Positions 54,171 through 63,506 of a DNA stretch of 64,000 bases are shown piece by piece. This stretch comes from Moniliella sp. 'wahieum'. Lineage: Eukaryota. Below the pieces are notes generated by a model. That model saw only the letters and a list, made by a program, of their open reading frames with translations. It was not told the DNA's origin and searched no databases. The stretch is taken from positions 806,001-870,000 of the forward strand of contig RSEE01000001.1 in the NCBI GenBank assembly GCA_003971905.1. Direction: 5' to 3'. The translations under genes and the position numbers were made by a program. Position 1 is the stretch's first letter. Every line of letters starts with the position of its first letter.

Positions 54171-55266
54171 GATGACTAGTGACTAGATGACTGTGCATGC
54201 TGGAGGTTGCACACGAGAGCATCGCAAAACGTCTTTGCAACGAAGGAAGAAAGTCTCTTCTGCCGTTGAAACAAGCAGAATGAGACAAAAGCCCCAAGTA
54301 CCAAGGGCAATGAGCTCTCTTTTTGTTTCCCTTTGGTTATGTCGGTTATCATATAACGCATGGATACTATGCCACCGAGACGGCGAATAACTTTTGTGGG
54401 CACACCGTCGATGACGGAAAGAGTAACTGATGAGCCTATCATTTTGGAGATGATTCTCAGCGTTCTGGACGTTCTGTATTACGTTCACCGCTCTCGGATG
54501 TCTCTCACGCCCTTCATATCCACACGCGCTCCCTCGGGTTTGGGTCCGGTGGCTGGCGCCAGAGGGTCCGGATCGACTGATCTGCTGGCGGTTTTCCTGT
54601 GGTTTCCACACGGGTTTAACGTTTAGCGCCAACAAGTAATATACACCGGATGAGAAGGTGGGTTTATAAGTCTTTCTTTGTCCCATGTCCCACAGCTTGA
54701 AATAACACTGTAAATTGTAACAGATGAATCATGATATATGATAAGACTGAGGTAGTTACATATAAGGCTAAGGGCGCTAAGGGTCGATTATCCATGGATC
54801 TTATCGATTGTCGGCCCGATTACCTCTTCGATTACCGGTTTTATTTTTATTGAAGTGCTTTAGTACTTCAGTACCTTCTGTACTCGATTACTCGTCGATA
54901 CTCAGCTACCCAGTCTTCCTCCGTAACCGGTAACTTGCGTTGAGTACGTTGAGCTGGTCCGCGGAAGAATGCTCAAGCGTTCGCCAGATACTCTCGTCGT
55001 TTCTGCGGAATCGTGGGCTGGCCATCATGCATCATGCATCACAGCACTCATTGAATATTGTGAGCTTAGAGCGCGCTCGCCTGAGCGGCCAGGGTACGGA
55101 GAGTGCGACCTGGTGTGGCTTATTAAAGTTCAATATTCAACTGAGTGAGCGCTCAGCCAGCCAGTTGCTTGATGCTGGAAGCTTGGCTGGCCCAACGCCT
55201 CAACTGGATACTGGATCGTCTAACGGCCGCAGCTCTGCCCAATAGCGACTATTGCTCCAATGTCAA

Positions 55267-55880
55267 TGTCAGCGCCATCATGCATGCAGCTGATCACGCA
55301 TCACGCATCGCGCTGTTCTATCCGACTCTCTCTATGTTCTGCCCCTAACGGGCTCCTCTCTTGGAATAGATCCATCACCTCCCTCTGTCTTCTTTTTTTC
55401 CGTAGGCCTTTGTCCTCGCATTTAACAGGTTGAGCCCACACTATCCTCTGAGTAGGCGGAGACTACACTCTCTCGTCTGCCCGCCTGAGCCCTACTTATA
55501 TTTTTTTCCCACCTACCCCCACCCCACACGGCTGAATGCCTGGTCTCCGTTCCGGAGCCGATACTGCTTTTCCACCCCTTTCCAAGAAGAAGCGTAACCC
55601 GCGCGCCGAAAGCATGTCTGCCGACGCCATTCTCCCTGTCGAAGCTACCCATGAGGAGCCCGCAGTTTCCATTCCTCTTCCAATCTCGTCGGATCCTAGC
55701 GTCGAGTCGTGGTGGGGCTGTCAGCGCCATCATGCATGCAGCTGATCACGCATCACGCATCGCGCTGTTCTATCCGACTCTCCTCTATGTTCTGCCCCTA
55801 ACGGGCTCCTCTCTTGGAATAGATCCATCACCTCCCTCTGTCTTCTTTTTTTCCGTAGGCCTTTGTCCTCGCATTTAACA
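55267..55880 (+). mobile_element. TRIM (terminal-repeat retrotransposon in miniature), non-autonomous, copia-type
   Basis: LTRs 55267-55427 and 55719-55880 (TG...CA, identical except a 1-nt indel); 5-bp TSD GTCAA (55262-55266 and 55881-55885); PBS-like GGTTGAGCCC; PPT-like GGTGGGGC; 291-bp internal region. Confidence 0.92.
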
Positions 55881-56157
55881 GTCAATCAAATCTGTTCACT
55901 CGGCGAGCGCTCAGGCGCTCAGGGCGCGCTCAGCCGATCAGATCGATCAATGCGAAATACATTCAAGGTACATATGTTGAACGTTGAACGTACCTGCTGA
56001 ACCCGTCGTAGTGAAAGCGGCTGTCTAGCTCATCAGGCTTTCATTGATTTCATTAGCGCCACGCCACTACATTGTCACGTATCACGCATCATGTACACAC
56101 GTCACGCCTCGTGTCTGACTCCCTGGTCGGAAGCGTTTGATATTTGCGGCAACTAGT

Positions 56158-56313
56158 TGTCGGCCTCGCTACTACCACAGAATGTGAGCACTGAACGTCG
56201 TATTGGACTAAGAAGCTTCTGCGACTGACTCGTCCAGAAGACTGGTGCGAGGAAGGAATGAAAGCTGACTCACGTGACTCAGGGTCCGCGCGGTCCTAGG
56301 ACGGATGTCAACA
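56158..56313 (-). repeat. 3' LTR of the copia element
   Basis: Direct repeat of 61034-61190, differing only in one short block. Confidence 0.95.
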
Positions 56314-59300
56314 CCCCCGCTGACCGGAGGGCCCAGTCATGTGGACTGGATCCATCTCCTCGACGCGGAGTTGAGCAAGATGGCTTGTCAGGGCGGGACG
56401 GCCGAGAGGCTTGGTGAGGACGTCCGCTGGGTTCCTTTCGCCGGGGATGTGTACAAGTATGGCCTCGCCCGAGTCCACGTGTTGCCGTACATTGTGGTAC
56501 CGGATCTTCAGCTCTCGGAGCTTGCCGGTGCTGCCAAATTTGTGGGCGAGATCGACGACAGACTTATTGTCGCAATACCAATGAATGGGTGTACCCTCGC
56601 CGATGGCCCCAAGCTCGATCATGATGTTCTTGACATAGTTGGCGTCAACCAGTCCATCATATCCTGCCGTATATTCGGCGGCGGCGGTACTGGTAACGCT
56701 CTTCGGCTGAAGAATGGATCGCCACGACACCGGCACACCGTACACCATCAGTAGGCATCCAGATGTGGAGCGTGCCTGGATGGGATCTCCCGCCAAGTCG
56801 GAATCTGTAACAGCGCAATGGCCGGTGCATCTGATGTTGGGGTCAACCTCAGGCCCTTTCCTCGAGTATGGTACAGGTAGCGAAGGAAGTCATCGACTGC
56901 TTGATGATGCTGCTGCGATGGGTCGGCAGCGGCTCTGCTGAGGGCCGTGATAGCGAAGAGGGAGTCAGGCCGGCCCATTCGTGCAGCCCACAGTCCCGAT
57001 CCGATCTTCCCCTGATATGCCTTGCGCAAGGCTGGGAGGGATGGGGGTTCAGGGTCGGCACGGGGCGGTATCATCCGTACGGGATGTGGGAGAGTCCGGA
57101 TCCACGGGGCTTTGATGTGGTGCTTTGCCACCACTTCTCGATGAACTTTGGTTGGCTCAGGTACAGCTCCCCACCGATCCGATCGTATTGGCATCCCAGG
57201 TGGTAGTGAAGGGGACCGTTACCACGAACATCAATGTGTGTGTTTATCTCGGCCAAACTCCTCGTACTTTTGGTGTGACTTGCATGCGAGGAGCAGATCG
57301 TCGGTGTGGACCGCCAGGAGGATCTGCTCACCCGGTGGTGCAGCGCGCACGAACAAGCAGGGCTCGGTCAAGCTTTGCGTGAAGCCGGCTTGTCACGCAG
57401 CAGGTTCCGGATGTATCGTGCCCAGTTTGCTCCGCTCTGATGTAGCCCGTATAGACTCTTCTTGAGACGCCACACGCGACCACCCGCTTCGGGGAAGTAG
57501 GGGGGTGGGCGGATGTAGACTGCTTCTTCGAGGGGGGCGTTCAGGTACGCTGCATTGACGTCCGCCGAGAAGAGGCCAAACTTATACTTCTCGGCCAGCA
57601 CGACGAGGGTCAGGATGGCAGGTGTGCGCACCGATGGTGCGAACGTCTGGCCCCAAGTCTCGGCCGATTGTTGGTGTCCGCCCGCGACAAAGCGCGCGCG
57701 GTGGCGCAGGAACCGGCCCTCGGCGTCCGTCTTTGTGGTGATGCGACATAGTCCATGAGGATTTGTGCACCCGTGGGGGTAGTAGCCTCGTAGGTGCCGT
57801 ATCGCGCGAGTGTGGCCACCGTCGGATAGCCTGCTTGACCAGGCAAAGGAGGGTGAGTCTCGAGACCCTTGAGCGTCTTGGGAGCGAGGGGTACGCCATC
57901 CTTGGTGAGCTGAACCGTGGGTGGATGGGTGCGCTGAGAGCAGTCCATGGCGGCGATTCGGGAGGTTGAACTGTGTCGGCAAACGGGGGGCGGATGTGTC
58001 AGGTAGGGGGCGGGCGATGCCGATCTCTGGTGCGGCGCAGTGGGGCGTGGCGGCTGCAGCACGAGCATGGTAGGTCGTGTCGGTGGGGTCGTCAGCGATT
58101 GGGAGTGTGTGCAGGTCGAGGGAGGTGCGGGTGGTGCGCTGGCGGAGGGGGTAGCGGCGCGGAGGGGGGGTGGTGGTGGGAGCGGGTGTCTGGGGTGTGG
58201 CGGCGGTTCGGGGCATGGGTGCTGCCGCGGCTGGCGGAGTAGGGTTAGCGTCTTTTTCACTGTCGATTTTAATTTGAGGTGATTTGGAGATGTCGGGTGG
58301 GAAGTGGTCGGGGTGGAGATGGGGGTAGATGGCGTTGCCCCATTTGTACGGTTTCGACCAGCGGTAGGTGAAGGTACCCAGGGATGGTTGGTATGTGGCG
58401 AAGAGCCATCCCTTTGATCCGCGCTGATGGTGGTATCCTACCAGCATACCTTCCTCTGCCCGCGCGCTGAGCTTGTGCTCGCGGCGTGACTCGGGCAGAT
58501 GGAGGTATGCAACGCGGCCAAAGGGTTGCATCGGTAACGAGTATGCGTGGCCTTTGTATCGCTCAAATCGCGATTTGTTGTCTTCCCCGGATGTTTTGAG
58601 TGGCATTTGGTTTTGGGTGAAGCACGCAGCGTGGAGGCTGTGTTCCCACCAGTCCGACGTCGGAAGACCTGTACCCAAGAGCAACTGCCTTGCACGAGTC
58701 GTTATGGTTCGGATGGCACGCTCAGCCACACCGTTGCTAGCACTCTGCCCCGGGATTGTCCGTTCTGACGTGATGCCTTGCTCGTCCAGAAAAGGTTGCA
58801 GTGCGCTTGTCAATTCGGGGGCGTTGTCCGTGCGCAAAGTCCGCAGCAGTCTGTCCGGGCCGTAGCGTTGCTCCCGCAATATGAGGTTCCGCAGTTCCTT
58901 CGTTGCAGCGCCCTTTGTCGGGATCGCTGTGGTGAAGACGTACCGCGTGAAGTCATCAACGGCGACGAGGGCGTATCCGTGCCCCATGCCGGTTACCCGG
59001 GGGAGGTCTACTACGTCGACGTGGAGGACCTCGAAAGGTCTTTTGGATCGGAGGCGGTCCCGGCTCGGATGGGGCGATGCTGTCGCTAGTGCCACCGCGC
59101 ATGTTGGGCAATCCCACTCTGAACGACAGAGGGAGATATGCTTGGCTGTGACGCGGAGGCCTGCGGTTTCCGATCGTGTAAGCCAGGGGAGGAGGTCGAT
59201 GGCTGCGTGGTTCCAGCGTTTGTGGGCTTTAGAGACGTGGTCCAGGGCCAGGGATGCTGCGAGGGAGTTTGGGGTTGAGGGTGGGTCGGCCGGTTTGATC

Positions 59301-59731
59301 GGTTTGGTCGCCATGGCCCGCAGGGGTGTGGGTGGCGTTCGCGGGTTGTGTAAGATCGTGAATTGATAGTCACTGCCGGTTACTTTTCGTAGGGTGGATC
59401 CTGGGTTACCAAGCCAGATACCCTTCTGGTGTGGGGCGAAGTATGATGCGATTCCGGTGTTCGACAGGTGTGCTACACTGACGAGATTTCGGCTGAAACG
59501 GGGCATGTATAGGCTGTTGGGGAGTTTTATCTCCATTTGGTGTCCTCCTAAGCATCGGATACGGATTGTGGCCGTGCCTCGTCCTTCCGCCTTTACATGT
59601 GTCCCGTTAGCAACCTCTATCTCGTCGTCGCAAGGGGTCATGGATGTGAAGACGGATTTGTCTTTCCAAATGGATGGGAATGCCCCACTGTCATATAATG
59701 CCCGGATGATTCGCATTTCGCCCCCGAGTTC
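56308..59731 (-). CDS. Copia Pol (protease, integrase, reverse transcriptase, RNase H); frameshifted in RT/RH in this assembly
   Basis: PR LYDSGA; IN HHCC (AHKRWNH...CPTC), LHVDVV, VDDFTRY, RTDNAPE, NGVAERAIR; RT ARFVAGG, ADVNAAYLNA, LKKSLYGLHQSG, VHTDD; RH TDSDLAG, STAAAEY, CDNKS, NPADVLTKPL. Confidence 0.93.
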
Positions 59732-60979
59732 CTAGTAGTCAGCTGTGCCCGCATCAACGTCAATCACTTCAGACTCGGGAGAGCTCGCTCTCTGAGCGAC
59801 GTGAGCGTTGGCTCGGCCTGGGTTGCGCGGAGGGACAACAGGTTTATTAGACGTCGCGCTGCGCCAGGGTTGGTTGGTGCGGTCTTGCCCCTTGGTCTTT
59901 GTGTCCGCGAGGTTGTCGTCGCCGGCTTTGCCCCCGCTGGAGTTTTTTCCCCCGCTGGTGGGTCGTCCCCCGCTGTCGGGTCGAGTCCAAGGCGTTCCTC
60001 CGTTGACCGGCTTGCCTCCGTTTCTCTTCCTTTCTCCACCGGGATACGTGGCGGCTGGTATGTCCATCACGGCCTGCCGTAACTTGTCTAGACTCGAGCG
60101 CTCTTCACGCTGGCGAATGCTCATGTCGCGTAAGCCGAGTAGGATCCCAGTGCGTTCCTGCTCTTCCGTAAGTGGGATGCCCGCTCGCGTCAGGCTTGCA
60201 CTGATCTCTTCCATGTAGTCGAGGTAGTCTCGACCCGATCGGTTTCCTTGGTCGGCCGAAAAGTAGCGAATGAGTAGAGGCCCTCTGTTTGCGGTAGGCG
60301 TATATCCATACCGCTGACGCAGCATGTTCAGCGTGTCCTGGGTGCATGATATTTCGTGGTGGGTGCGGATCGTCCGGAAGAGGGTTGACGGCATGGCTTC
60401 CCTAAGAAGGTTGTGCAAGCGTCTGTCGAGGTCCTCGGTGAAGTAGCGGGAGCTGCGACCATTCTGGACGACGTCGCTTGCGTGGGGGTGGGCATCTGTT
60501 ATCGCGAAGAGAAATTCGTCTTCCCAAGCGCTGTAGGCGGACGGGTCTTTGTTCAGATCAGGCCACTTGATATTCTTGGTGGGAGACTCGCGTAGTGATC
60601 TGTAAAGGTCGTACTCGGGTCGCGAGGCTGCGCCTGTAGGTGCCCCCAAAGTTGCGTTGGGTTGAGTTTCCATTTGGTGGATGTTTTGCACCACAAAATT
60701 CGTAGCCCGTCGAACCCAGTTTGTCGTGATAGACGTAGGTTCGTCCTTCCATCCAAGCCACTCGGCTCTGTCGTGTATAGCTCTGTTGATCTTCTCTTTA
60801 ACGACATCGATGTCGTTCGTCTTCTTGAACCACAGGTGCGCTTCGGCGCAAAGCATCATGAGTTCCTCGTTGTCGGTGCCAATCGGTGGCGGATCGCGAC
60901 CGGTTGGTGTCCAGTAATCGCGCTTGTTCACCATTGTGGTGTCGCTGACCGAGAGATCGGTGTTAGCGTTGGCGCCCAT
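59732..60979 (-). CDS. Copia Gag (no CCHC zinc knuckle)
   Basis: Uninterrupted ORF from ATG 60979 (MGANANTD...) with YSAWEDEF, LRQRYG, DYLDYMEEI...ILLGL and a basic/Gly-rich C-terminus, ending in TAG in frame with pol. Confidence 0.88.
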   Translation of the reverse strand: MGANANTDLSVSDTTMVNKRDYWTPTGRDPPPIGTDNEELMMLCAEAHLWFKKTNDIDVVKEKINRAIHDRAEWLGWKDEPTSITTNWVRRATNFVVQNIHQMETQPNATLGAPTGAASRPEYDLYRSLRESPTKNIKWPDLNKDPSAYSAWEDEFLFAITDAHPHASDVVQNGRSSRYFTEDLDRRLHNLLREAMPSTLFRTIRTHHEISCTQDTLNMLRQRYGYTPTANRGPLLIRYFSADQGNRSGRDYLDYMEEISASLTRAGIPLTEEQERTGILLGLRDMSIRQREERSSLDKLRQAVMDIPAATYPGGERKRNGGKPVNGGTPWTRPDSGGRPTSGGKNSSGGKAGDDNLADTKTKGQDRTNQPWRSATSNKPVVPPRNPGRANAHVAQRASSPESEVIDVDAGTADY

Positions 60980-61033
60980 GGTTGTGGGTGTAGTTTTGGC
61001 CAGCTCAGGGATGAGCAGATAAGGATGTAACTC

Positions 61034-61190
61034 TGTCGGCCTCGCTACTACCACAGAATGTGAGCACTGAACGTCGTATTGGACTAAGAAGCTTCTGCGA
61101 CTGACTCGTCCAGAAGACTGGTGCGAGCTCGGAAGAAAAAGCTGACTCACGTGACTCAGGGTCCGCGCGGTCCTAGGACGGATGTCAACA
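61034..61190 (-). repeat. 5' LTR of the copia element
   Basis: Direct repeat of 56158-56313; contains TGACTCA twice. Confidence 0.95.
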
Positions 61191-61978
61191 CTAGTAACTA
61201 GTAACTCATTGATCGGTTCGTGCGCCACCTATTTTGTTGCAGAAGGGGCGATGTGCGTGACAGGGGTGGCCGGTGGCGGGTGGCACATGTCTGTGATCCG
61301 TGTGATTCGCTCTTCGGGTTGTCGCCTCACATGGTCGTCTGTTGCGAAGTCGAAGGTCCGACACGTGGTCTGACAGGGTCTGCCCTGGTCTGCCCGTTGC
61401 CGCCTTGGAGCTTGGCTAGGCTTGGGACACGTGAATATTGAATTGAAAGACGGCTGGAAGCCTGCGCTATCTTCAAGCTTCAAGCTTCAAGTTTCAGGCC
61501 CCTCAGGAGCTTCAGGCCTCAGGCTGAGGCCCTCAGGGAAGCTCGGGAAGGCCTAAGGTGGACGAAGGCTGAGCGCTGGCTGACTCGTCAGGCTGACTGC
61601 GCTGACGCGCTAACACAGGCTGGACCCTCAGCTGATGATCGATGAGGCCTGCGGCCTGCTGATGCGCTGATGTATGATGCATGATGCATGATGCAGCTAT
61701 CTGCAACGCCACATCTGTGGCCTTCGGGACAAAATAAAGCTCAAGTAAGTACTAAGTTAGGCCTTTGGCCTTCCGCCTCGCGCTTTGCGCCTTGTGGTTT
61801 TTGCGTCAATCTGCATGGCCCAGGAGGATTCTCGGCCTCCATCGAAACCGGCACGCGCCTCAACTGCAGTGGCTTTTTTCTGCTTCGTCGCCTCCAGCCA
61901 GTTGTGATTACAGTCGTCTTGACAGGTGTCCACATCAGCCGGGCGCAGGATCTACTCTTTCTGTCACCACCATCCGTC

Positions 61979-63506
61979 ATGAGCTCGAGCGACGCATCAG
62001 CTGCTTTGGCCTCGTTAGAGCAGGCCATTCTTTCCAACCCTACGTGGCCTGCTATCCCTGGGCAGGGCAAGTGGGCTGGCCTGCCCCCGGAGCTCAGACC
62101 AATTTTTGCACAGATGGAGGAGGTCAGCTACGAAGGCTCCATTGGCTGGTGGCTTAACCTCGTCGCCATTGGCGCCATTGGGTTCGACTGGATTGTCTCT
62201 CTCCCTTCTGATATCAAGTTTGTGTTTTGGCCCGAAATCCGCCGCGTCTTTTGCCTTGACAGTACCTCCGAATCGAGGCAAAGGCGGTATCGGCTGCCTC
62301 ATCCCATCATTATCTGCCACTTTTTCTGTCGCATCCTCGTTCCCGCGTATTTTGGCGCGCTGATTAACTACTGGCGCGTTTCCACGTCGTGCGCCTCCGC
62401 CTTACGTGGGCAATTGAGCATGGTGGCCATTCTGACCATCTGTGGTCAGATGCTCTTGACGTTCCGCTCCATGGCCATTACCCGTTCACTTTCTTTCCAC
62501 CGCATTCTCTGGGCCTTCCTCTGGACCTGCAATGTGGCCATTGGTGTTATCTGGTTGTACTTTGCCTTTGACACCACCACTACCACGTACGTCCCCTCTC
62601 CATCATACATACTCTAACCGTCTCTAACTCGCGTATTCATTCAGGTTGCCGAACGTTGAGCCACTTGGCTTTAGGTTTGGTTTCCGGTGCGGCACCCCTC
62701 AATCAAAGCGGTACTTGCCCGTCTGCTTTTACTCCATCACTGTGGTCATGGATACAACGATGTATCTTTCCTCTTTGTTCGTGATTCAAACCACATTTGT
62801 ACAGCCCACTATCACAACCGCTAAGCAACGTTACCCTTTCCTTGCATCCATCCGCTCTGTGGCACGCTACACGTACTGGTGCCTGGTGGGCGTCGACAAG
62901 TCTAGTTTGACCGGAACTTCGGCGGTTGCAGCTACGTTCATTGCCGATGGCGCACGGTATCTCCTCATTGCTTGGGCGTTGGAAACTGTGGGGATTGTGT
63001 TCGCCATTCGCTTTGTCCTCACTCAGGCCCATCCAAATCAGGTCAAGATGGCATGGATGCTCCCCTTCCATGCTATTGTGTATGCCACAATCGTGCCCAA
63101 GGTACGTTCCGGCTTCCAAACTTTTTCTTTCTTGTTTTGAGATACTGATGGCCCACATTCCAACCCATAGACTGTTGTCTCTCTTAAGCGTGTGAGCTGG
63201 ATTGAGCGCATGATTGCTCGTCGGAACATGGACGAACCCTCGGAACCCTTCGAGTCGGAATCGAACGATCCGCGTCGGAACGATGGGGTTGCGATCCGAA
63301 GCGTCGTCCAGCAACATACCGACGTCCACCCCGGTGCTTTTGCCACCTACCGGCCCAACCTGGTCGAAGATATTGTTCGGCAAATCCCCAGCACCGGCGG
63401 GGAGAAAGAGAAGGACTCGCTTGACGGAAATTCTTTCCGGGCTAAGAGCGAGATGCCCTCGGAATCGGCCGAGTACCCTCCTCCCGGCCACGGCATGTTC
63501 TCCTAG
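61979..63506 (+). CDS. Multi-pass fungal membrane protein (DUF6533-like, function unknown)
   Basis: FDWIVSLPSDIKFVFW motif followed by about 6-7 hydrophobic segments; introns ~62587-62645 and from ~63102; acidic soluble tail. Confidence 0.65.

Follow-up and report, generated by a model that had tools for sequence, protein, structure and literature searches.

The element described here lies on the minus strand of a window of 64,000 nucleotides (the whole stretch of DNA that was analysed). Its features, including those predicted by folding, are listed below, with positions after the gag stop codon counted from +1. The labels F1 to F12 are our own names for copia families, F1 being the family of the window element.

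61190 to 56158, minus strand: copia element, 5.03 kb, Ty1/copia
61034–61190, minus strand: 5′ LTR of 157 nt, TG...CA, preceded by the 5-bp target site duplication ACTAG
59735–60979, minus strand: gag open reading frame, 415 codons from the ATG at 60979, aligning at 17–27% with the gags of five sister families
59738–59742, minus strand: CTGAC, a branch-point-like pentamer overlapping an Asp codon, relevant to a splicing explanation
59732–59734, minus strand: in-frame UAG dividing gag from pol, found in 57/57 matches and in 12 families
59723–59731, minus strand: conserved 3′ context, GAACTCGGG in the window element and G-R-V-N-N-C-G-S-G across 10 families
59711–59724, minus strand: 5′ arm (+8 to +21) of a long-range stem predicted by folding
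59714–59716, minus strand: in-frame ATG, codon 6, inside the 5′ arm and without conservation in sister families
59702–59706, minus strand: 5′ strand (+26 to +30) of a predicted second short helix, partner at 59457–59453
59453–59695, minus strand: protease domain PF22936, catalytic DSG from 59692
59433–59451, minus strand: predicted 3′ arm (+281 to +299) of the long-range stem, containing a 5-nt bulge and coding for part of ASYFAP at the protease end
56308–59731, minus strand: pol (PR-IN-RT-RNase H); in the window copy its frame is open over 787 codons and small indels then interrupt it
56158–56313, minus strand: 3′ LTR of 156 nt, with a G-rich tract before it and ACTAG after it

The Pfam domains of F1 pol follow the order PF22936 protease, rve, SH3 and RVT_2, which is the PR-IN-RT order of Ty1/copia, and the TG...CA LTRs (157 and 156 nt) flanked on both sides by ACTAG are likewise of the Ty1/copia kind; an 18-nt stretch 3′ of the LTR is common to 68 locus hits. 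The gag open reading frame had zero Pfam matches. Small indels interrupt the RT and RNase H of the window copy, which differs from five sister copies by 19–32 small indels and two to three substitutions in 5 kb, the assembly carrying about 20 small indels per copy; several sister copies have a pol that is open over 1146 codons. Two observations make a basidiomycete the probable host: the adjoining gene resembles DUF6533 clusters, which are mostly from Basidiomycota, and among named pol relatives those from Ustilago come closest (25–33% identity). This DUF6533-like gene, which contains introns, lies at 61976–63160 on the plus strand, about 800 nt from the 5′ LTR. The domain order and the neighbouring gene thus agree with an earlier note on this DNA, made from the letters alone, that had called the element a basidiomycete copia, the host being only probable.

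That note had also quoted a minus-strand junction in which one UAG sits exactly at the gag/protease boundary. The quotation is exact: TAG (59734–59732) follows the 415-codon gag, 13 in-frame codons separate it from DSG, and the ATG reported at 59716 is present. A 601-nt junction query returned 63 candidates, of which 40 were scored and 34 were identical. Sense codons in sister copies had been named as the observation that would overturn the proposal, and this test was run with a 33-nt junction pattern that allowed up to three mismatches, so that any sense codon would show. Genome-wide, all 57 matches carry TAG, and the refutation failed. A pol-side pattern gave 54 matches, every one co-located with the TAG junction matches, and one extra noisy F1 copy (L074) likewise carries TAG. 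Since no stop-less F1 copy was found among the 57 junction and 54 pol-side matches and L074, F1 must pass the stop. In two copies (L032 and L034) the full gag and the 1146-codon pol are open, with TAG as the sole interruption, so that in F1 the gag and pol frames are open and divided by one inherited in-frame stop, the layout of Tca2. The argument that indel-type errors make a substitution artefact less likely holds as well, with two to three substitutions per 5 kb between copies. The F1 stop is therefore real and inherited, neither chance nor assembly error. Reassignment of the codon in the host appears unlikely because TAG is absent from the open frames of 415 and 1146 codons.

To place the stop in a wider context, we examined 80 stretches around protease and RT hits for junctions. 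TAG-G occurs at the end of gag, upstream of protease, in 12 copia families of this genome, the other families having RT identities to F1 of 33–70%. The frame from TAG to DSG is unbroken in a copy of 9 of the 12 families; F7, F10 and F12 have one copy each, with an indel between stop and DSG. Where copies could be counted, the stop was present in 20/20 matches of F2 and in 10/10 of F9. No natively fused gag-pol family was seen among the best-scoring candidates of the assessed families, and 9 of 20 further loci gave no usable protease junction (L204, L206, L209–L211, L213, L214, L216 and L217). In RT trees (F7 and F12 being absent from both, and F5 from the tested one), eight of nine tested families cluster and the placement of F8 is not resolved; a single origin of the families with TAG-G is not rejected (p-AU 0.29), and we claim neither monophyly nor convergence. 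The gags of F8 and F12 (L107, L108 and L203) contain a CCHC zinc knuckle and the gag ends of F1–F6 do not; the junction motif is shared between the two sets despite this difference.

Proteins from other, short-read assemblies begin past the junction, P0001 at the first Met of F2 pol and P0002 just before DSG; these starts, known from protein models, are as an upstream stop would cause. Three further pol-only models start in or just before protease (P0067, from a Tilletia species, P0045 and P0050), and a stop of the same kind may lie concealed behind these models in other fungi.

Across 10 families (F7 and F10 were left out of this comparison), the junction reads UAG-GRV-NNC-GSG. Two of the 10, the close sisters F5 and F6 (87%), carry the weight of one. 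The nucleotides +1G, +6C, +7G and +9G are invariant in all 10, +2 is a purine, +8 is C or G, and −2 is A in nine. Positions +6 and +9 are codon third positions beneath changing amino acids. Elsewhere, where residues are identical, their codons agree about as often as chance would give (82/271 at fourfold sites between F1 and F2, 34/151 between F1 and F9); judged from these alignments, synonymous sites are saturated, so that +1G, +6C, +7G and +9G are conserved at the nucleotide level. The heptamer GAACTCG is exact in F1, F2, F3, F9 and F11, some pairs of which are less than 30% identical in pol. Whereas the distance from stop to DSG ranges from 13 to 55 codons, the spacing between motif and stop stays constant, and the motif therefore belongs to the stop. 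The stop itself is UAG, never UGA, and is followed by G, a Type III readthrough feature, in 12/12 families; GAA directly precedes it in five. The Type I context UAG-CAR-YYA occurs in 0/12, in line with the earlier remark that the element lacks CARYYA.

The junction motif by itself is not rare, as the pattern recurs once per F1 LTR and once in the host DNA of the window. The LTR copies (61176–61165 and 56299–56288, minus strand) lie inside a palindromic stretch, the one in the 3′ LTR being in frame four codons past the pol stop; the motif was not seen in the LTRs of other families, and its recurrence in those of F1 is probably chance. About 20 codons before the stop, an ANAH-V motif (59812–59798, minus strand), which recurs in F2, F3 and others, presumably resembles a Ty1-type protease cleavage site. 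If it were cleaved, the mature protease would begin upstream of the stop, favouring a Gag-Pol fusion.

The earlier note had pointed to UAG-G plus downstream structure and had named a local stem, CUCGGG/UCCGGG. Structure is indeed predicted, but its partner strand lies about 280 nt downstream and is not the named stem. The latter appears only in short windows, where it is no more stable than in shuffles (z +1.59 over 120 nt; +0.3 to +0.6); no stable local stem was found within short windows of F1, and we rejected CUCGGG/UCCGGG as the F1 signal, the first 120 nt after the stop being no better than shuffles. A duplex scan instead placed the partner at about 280 nt in F2 and F3, and in F1 that site came first among 101. 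There, +8 to +21 is predicted to pair with +281 to +299 (14 bp, predicted p 0.97–0.98 in 330–600 nt of context), and pairing at the homologous site is predicted for F2 (12 bp) and F3 (14 bp), in 4/4 window sizes for each of F1, F2 and F3; the two families with homologous-site pairing are 55–61% identical. Each of the three long-range stems encloses a second short helix. The stretch 59420–59740 folds at −108.9 kcal/mol (z −3.66, 0/100 shuffles as good), and the junction region ranks first in F1 against 13 windows elsewhere and in F2 and F3 against eight windows each. These predictions come from folding programs that cover pseudoknot-free structures. A partner among the integrase DNAPE codons, near +900, came out best at first in F1 but was lost in F3 and was rejected. 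Rfam gave 0 matches over 55000–61400 at E up to 1.

The consensus fold of F1–F3 has a 7-bp core with one compensatory change (G-C to A-U) at a synonymous site; F2 disrupts two of the core pairs, so covariation is thin and comes from three sequences. Partner specificity is weak (−24.1 for the F1 arm with the F2 site versus −24.6). Recoding of the 3′ site alone gave p 0.07–0.18, as part of the match is dictated by the protein, and recoding of both sites gave p 0.008–0.019. Stems that have 9 bp or more and begin no later than +9 are predicted in 10/12 families, compared with 22/182 random (12%) and 33/182 G-rich (18%) control positions, the 9-bp threshold having been set after the data were seen and the long-range stem having been found by scan. 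The 12 families amount to about seven independent structures, five of which pass; F10 and F11 fail. While the stem of F1, F2 and F3 closes a domain of about 270 nt, most other families are predicted to form a local hairpin, starting at +5 to +9 or, in F8, at +1. In the helix of F8 and F12, three pairs are changed on both sides.

Copies without the stop exist in two other families. F4 yielded six matches with TAG and two with TCG (a third TCG copy was seen separately), together with 17 matches and one noisy copy in which an 81-nt in-frame deletion spans the stop. All examined F4 copies without the stop (9/9 with the deletion and 3/3 with TCG) also lack the gag start, having lost it with about 80–90 codons through two different deletions, and two copies with AGG additionally lack 2.3 kb of pol. 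By comparison, 4/5 of the TAG copies keep the gag start, and one without it retains TAG. The pattern suggests that an F4 copy retains the stop for as long as it provides Gag, and loses it later. Two F9 copies are without both stop and hairpin and also have a 66-nt deletion in gag; copy L207, in which the stop is lost yet gag is open, is a counter-example. The F4 derivative with fused gag-pol (L045–L048, L069, L119, L120, L219 and L220) numbers at least 18 copies compared with six that carry TAG, is open through pol in L047, and is possibly a parasite that borrows Gag. A miniature, non-coding LTR element of about 614 nt also lies in the window (55267–55880, plus strand), with two 161-nt F9-like LTRs and a GTCAA duplication, and appears to be a TRIM-like derivative.

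We consider programmed readthrough of the UAG, in a Type III-like context with a 3′ stem, to be the probable explanation of these sequences and predicted folds. It is favoured because TAG-G lies at the boundary in 12 families with an invariant context and with stems beyond those of the controls, because F1 is young and abundant while carrying the stop and includes copies with both frames open, because known Type III signals combine UAG-G with structure and alphavirus stems are comparable (PMC3159437, PMC13517186), and because in the F4 copies examined the stop was lost only where the gag start was lost. We infer readthrough, the roles of motif and stem and the Gag:Pol ratio from the observed stop, its conservation and the predicted stems. 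Full-length RNA would be translated from the gag AUG; most ribosomes would end at the UAG and release Gag, and a few would insert an amino acid and go on to Gag-Pol, the rarity of the event setting a high Gag:Pol ratio. The signal would consist of UAG-GRV-NNC-GSG and a G+C-rich stem beginning 5–9 nt past the stop. A near-cognate tRNA would compete with the release factor; meanwhile the stem, after a 7-nt spacer in the window element, would slow the ribosome, yielding perhaps a few percent Gag-Pol. Against readthrough, UAG-GAA and UAG-GAC fall outside the listed Type III hexamers (UAGGGV, UAGGUA and UAGGAU), the window element having UAGGAA; UAGGGV is present in 3/12 families and UAGGAU in two single copies with broken frames.

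YAG|G is the consensus of a splice acceptor, and TAG|G fits it. The stop could thus be part of a 3′ splice site, with a minor spliced RNA joining gag to pol without the stop. A branch-point-like YTRAY 8–30 nt upstream with no AG between is found in 3/10 families (F1, F2 and F8) compared with 6.4% of background positions, the host branch-point spacing obtained from 29 candidate introns being too noisy to draw on. However, 6/10 families have no YTRAY inside 40 nt, the YTRAY of F1 and F2 overlaps an Asp codon and sits just 3 nt ahead of TAG, and an acceptor leaves the invariant +6, +7 and +9 unexplained. Nor was a retroposed spliced copy seen, 54/54 pol-side matches being at TAG junction sites, and none of the three stop-removing deletions (F4, F9) has GT...AG ends. 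Plant copia elements do splice near protease, but splicing creates a gag stop there instead of removing one (PMC5580714). We regard splicing as unlikely.

A separate start of pol, through a junction promoter, re-initiation or internal entry, is in our estimate about as unlikely as splicing. The earlier note had offered readthrough or internal initiation; the former is the best reading, and the latter, at the ATG at 59716, fits poorly. This ATG is codon 6 and lies upstream of DSG, but a Met precedes DSG in just two of the nine families with an unbroken frame (F1 and F11), and the first pol Met of F2 is codon 155, beyond the protease. The 270-nt folded domain and the LTR-recurring motif could act at the level of DNA or initiation; against this, the motif was not seen in the LTRs of other families, and a separate start would not hold gag and pol in one frame across nine families. 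A weak promoter was described within the Tca2 junction (PMC2194720), although Tca2 Pol tracked the LTR promoter.

Other forms of recoding, in which ribosomes hop or shift at the stop with help from the same stem and so produce Gag-Pol, are highly unlikely. In most families the stop is followed by runs of G, and pol is out of frame near the stop in F7 and F10; each of these two, however, is represented by one copy, and copies in this assembly carry about 20 small indels each. In nine families pol is exactly in frame, and no slippery word is common to the variable bases that precede the stop. A fixed nonsense mutation in a dead or helper-copied, non-autonomous family, or an assembly error, which the error-prone assembly, the broken RT of the window copy and the fused gag-pol copies of F4 and F9 might suggest, is scarcely credible and largely refuted, as errors are indels (two to three substitutions per 5 kb between copies), 12 families share the stop and its context, the fused copies are derived deletions, and P0001 and P0002, as protein models, start past the junction as an upstream stop would cause.

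The readthrough reading can be set beside known systems. SIRE1 and Tca2 had been cited as precedents for a stop between gag and pol; Tca2 stands, and SIRE1 does not, its stop separating pol from env (PMC2829016). Tca2 (Candida albicans, Ty1/copia) resembles the window element in having gag and pol in one frame, a single stop, no CARYYA and a predicted 3′ structure (PMC2194720, PMC3441728). It uses UGA, whereas the window element has UAG, the 10-family motif and a predicted partner strand 280–300 nt downstream. The main caution against readthrough comes from the same element, because its MuLV-like 300-nt junction gave no reporter readthrough in Saccharomyces cerevisiae; its authors proposed remote signals (PMC2194720). 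VdLTRE5 (Verticillium dahliae, Ty1/copia), from a filamentous fungus, likewise has a gag-stop-pol layout without CARYYA, but with UGA, two copies and, in the available text, no proposed signal, compared with UAG across the assessable copia families of the Moniliella genome (PMC3441728). Tj1, Tosmo1-3 and Tcry1 of fission yeasts also have an in-frame stop in a conserved context, and the Tj1 stop is reported to be essential for transposition; GAA precedes the stop in these elements as in 5/12 Moniliella families. Unlike the window copia, they are Ty3/gypsy elements with a Type II-like UGA-CU and no structure described in the portions seen (bioRxiv 10.1101/2022.12.06.519325).

Among viruses, Type III signals (gammaretrovirus gag-pol, tombusvirid replicase) share UAG-G and a short G-rich spacer, and require a 3′ structure that is sometimes long-range; in MoMLV this structure doubles as coding sequence for the protease N-terminus (PMC3159437, PMC13517186). 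The gammaretrovirus structure is a compact H-type pseudoknot 8 nt past the stop; the fungal retrotransposon described here has a 7-nt spacer, GAACUCG. Alphaviruses have an 8–12 nt spacer, a stem of 10–12 bp and a loop of 101–154 nt (PMC3159437, PMC13517186), and the 3′ stem-loops of alphaviruses and Virgaviridae resemble the predicted stem in their 7–12 nt spacer, bulged stem of 10–12 or more bp and long inner loop; Virgaviridae and the Moniliella families alike conserve G as the third base of codon +3. These viruses have UGA-CGG or UGA-CUA and a span of about 100–190 nt, compared with UAG-G and about 300 nt here (PMC3159437). Further comparison literature comprises PMC5009743, PMC5445492, PMC9603552 and bioRxiv 10.1101/2023.02.27.530227.

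A UAG gag-pol signal for a basidiomycete copia was not found in the literature searched, which was covered in part. The gag-stop-pol layout is known, with UGA in all the cases compared above; the UAG cross-family motif and the long-range stem seem to be new. Searches beyond this genome gave five pattern matches to the junction in IMG/VR, zero of them confirmed, 0 gag homologues among 3920 candidates and, in a metagenome scan, 80 loci that were kept, all distant copia (22–35% identity) with no near relative. Two of the metagenome copia (L129 and L138) carry GAA-TGA-CTA-G 58 codons ahead of the protease motif, a Type II context as in Tj1 and Tosmo, and fall outside the family groups of this genome in RT comparison.

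More tentatively, and with somewhat less than even confidence, we suggest that an old fungal copia radiation shares UAG-GRV-NNC-GSG and a stem whose 3′ partner shifted between a local position and one about 280 nt away in the protease gene, converging on the alphavirus architecture. Derivatives without gag start and stop would make a truncated Gag-Pol, borrow parental Gag and outnumber their parent (at least 18 versus 6 in F4).

How a copia element passes a stop after gag is a question that has stood since Tca2 (PMC2194720). The genome offers a natural comparative series, in which one stop and one short motif are combined with several alternative stems at RT identities down to 33%, and the motif and stems supply precise mutations for reporters. 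If readthrough is correct, short junction fragments of F1 are predicted to fail in a reporter, and a mobile 3′ partner would be a possible reason for the failure of short Tca2 reporters. For annotation, such stops do not mark pseudogenes. The copia families of this genome would then add a UAG structure-dependent signal that acts on fungal ribosomes.
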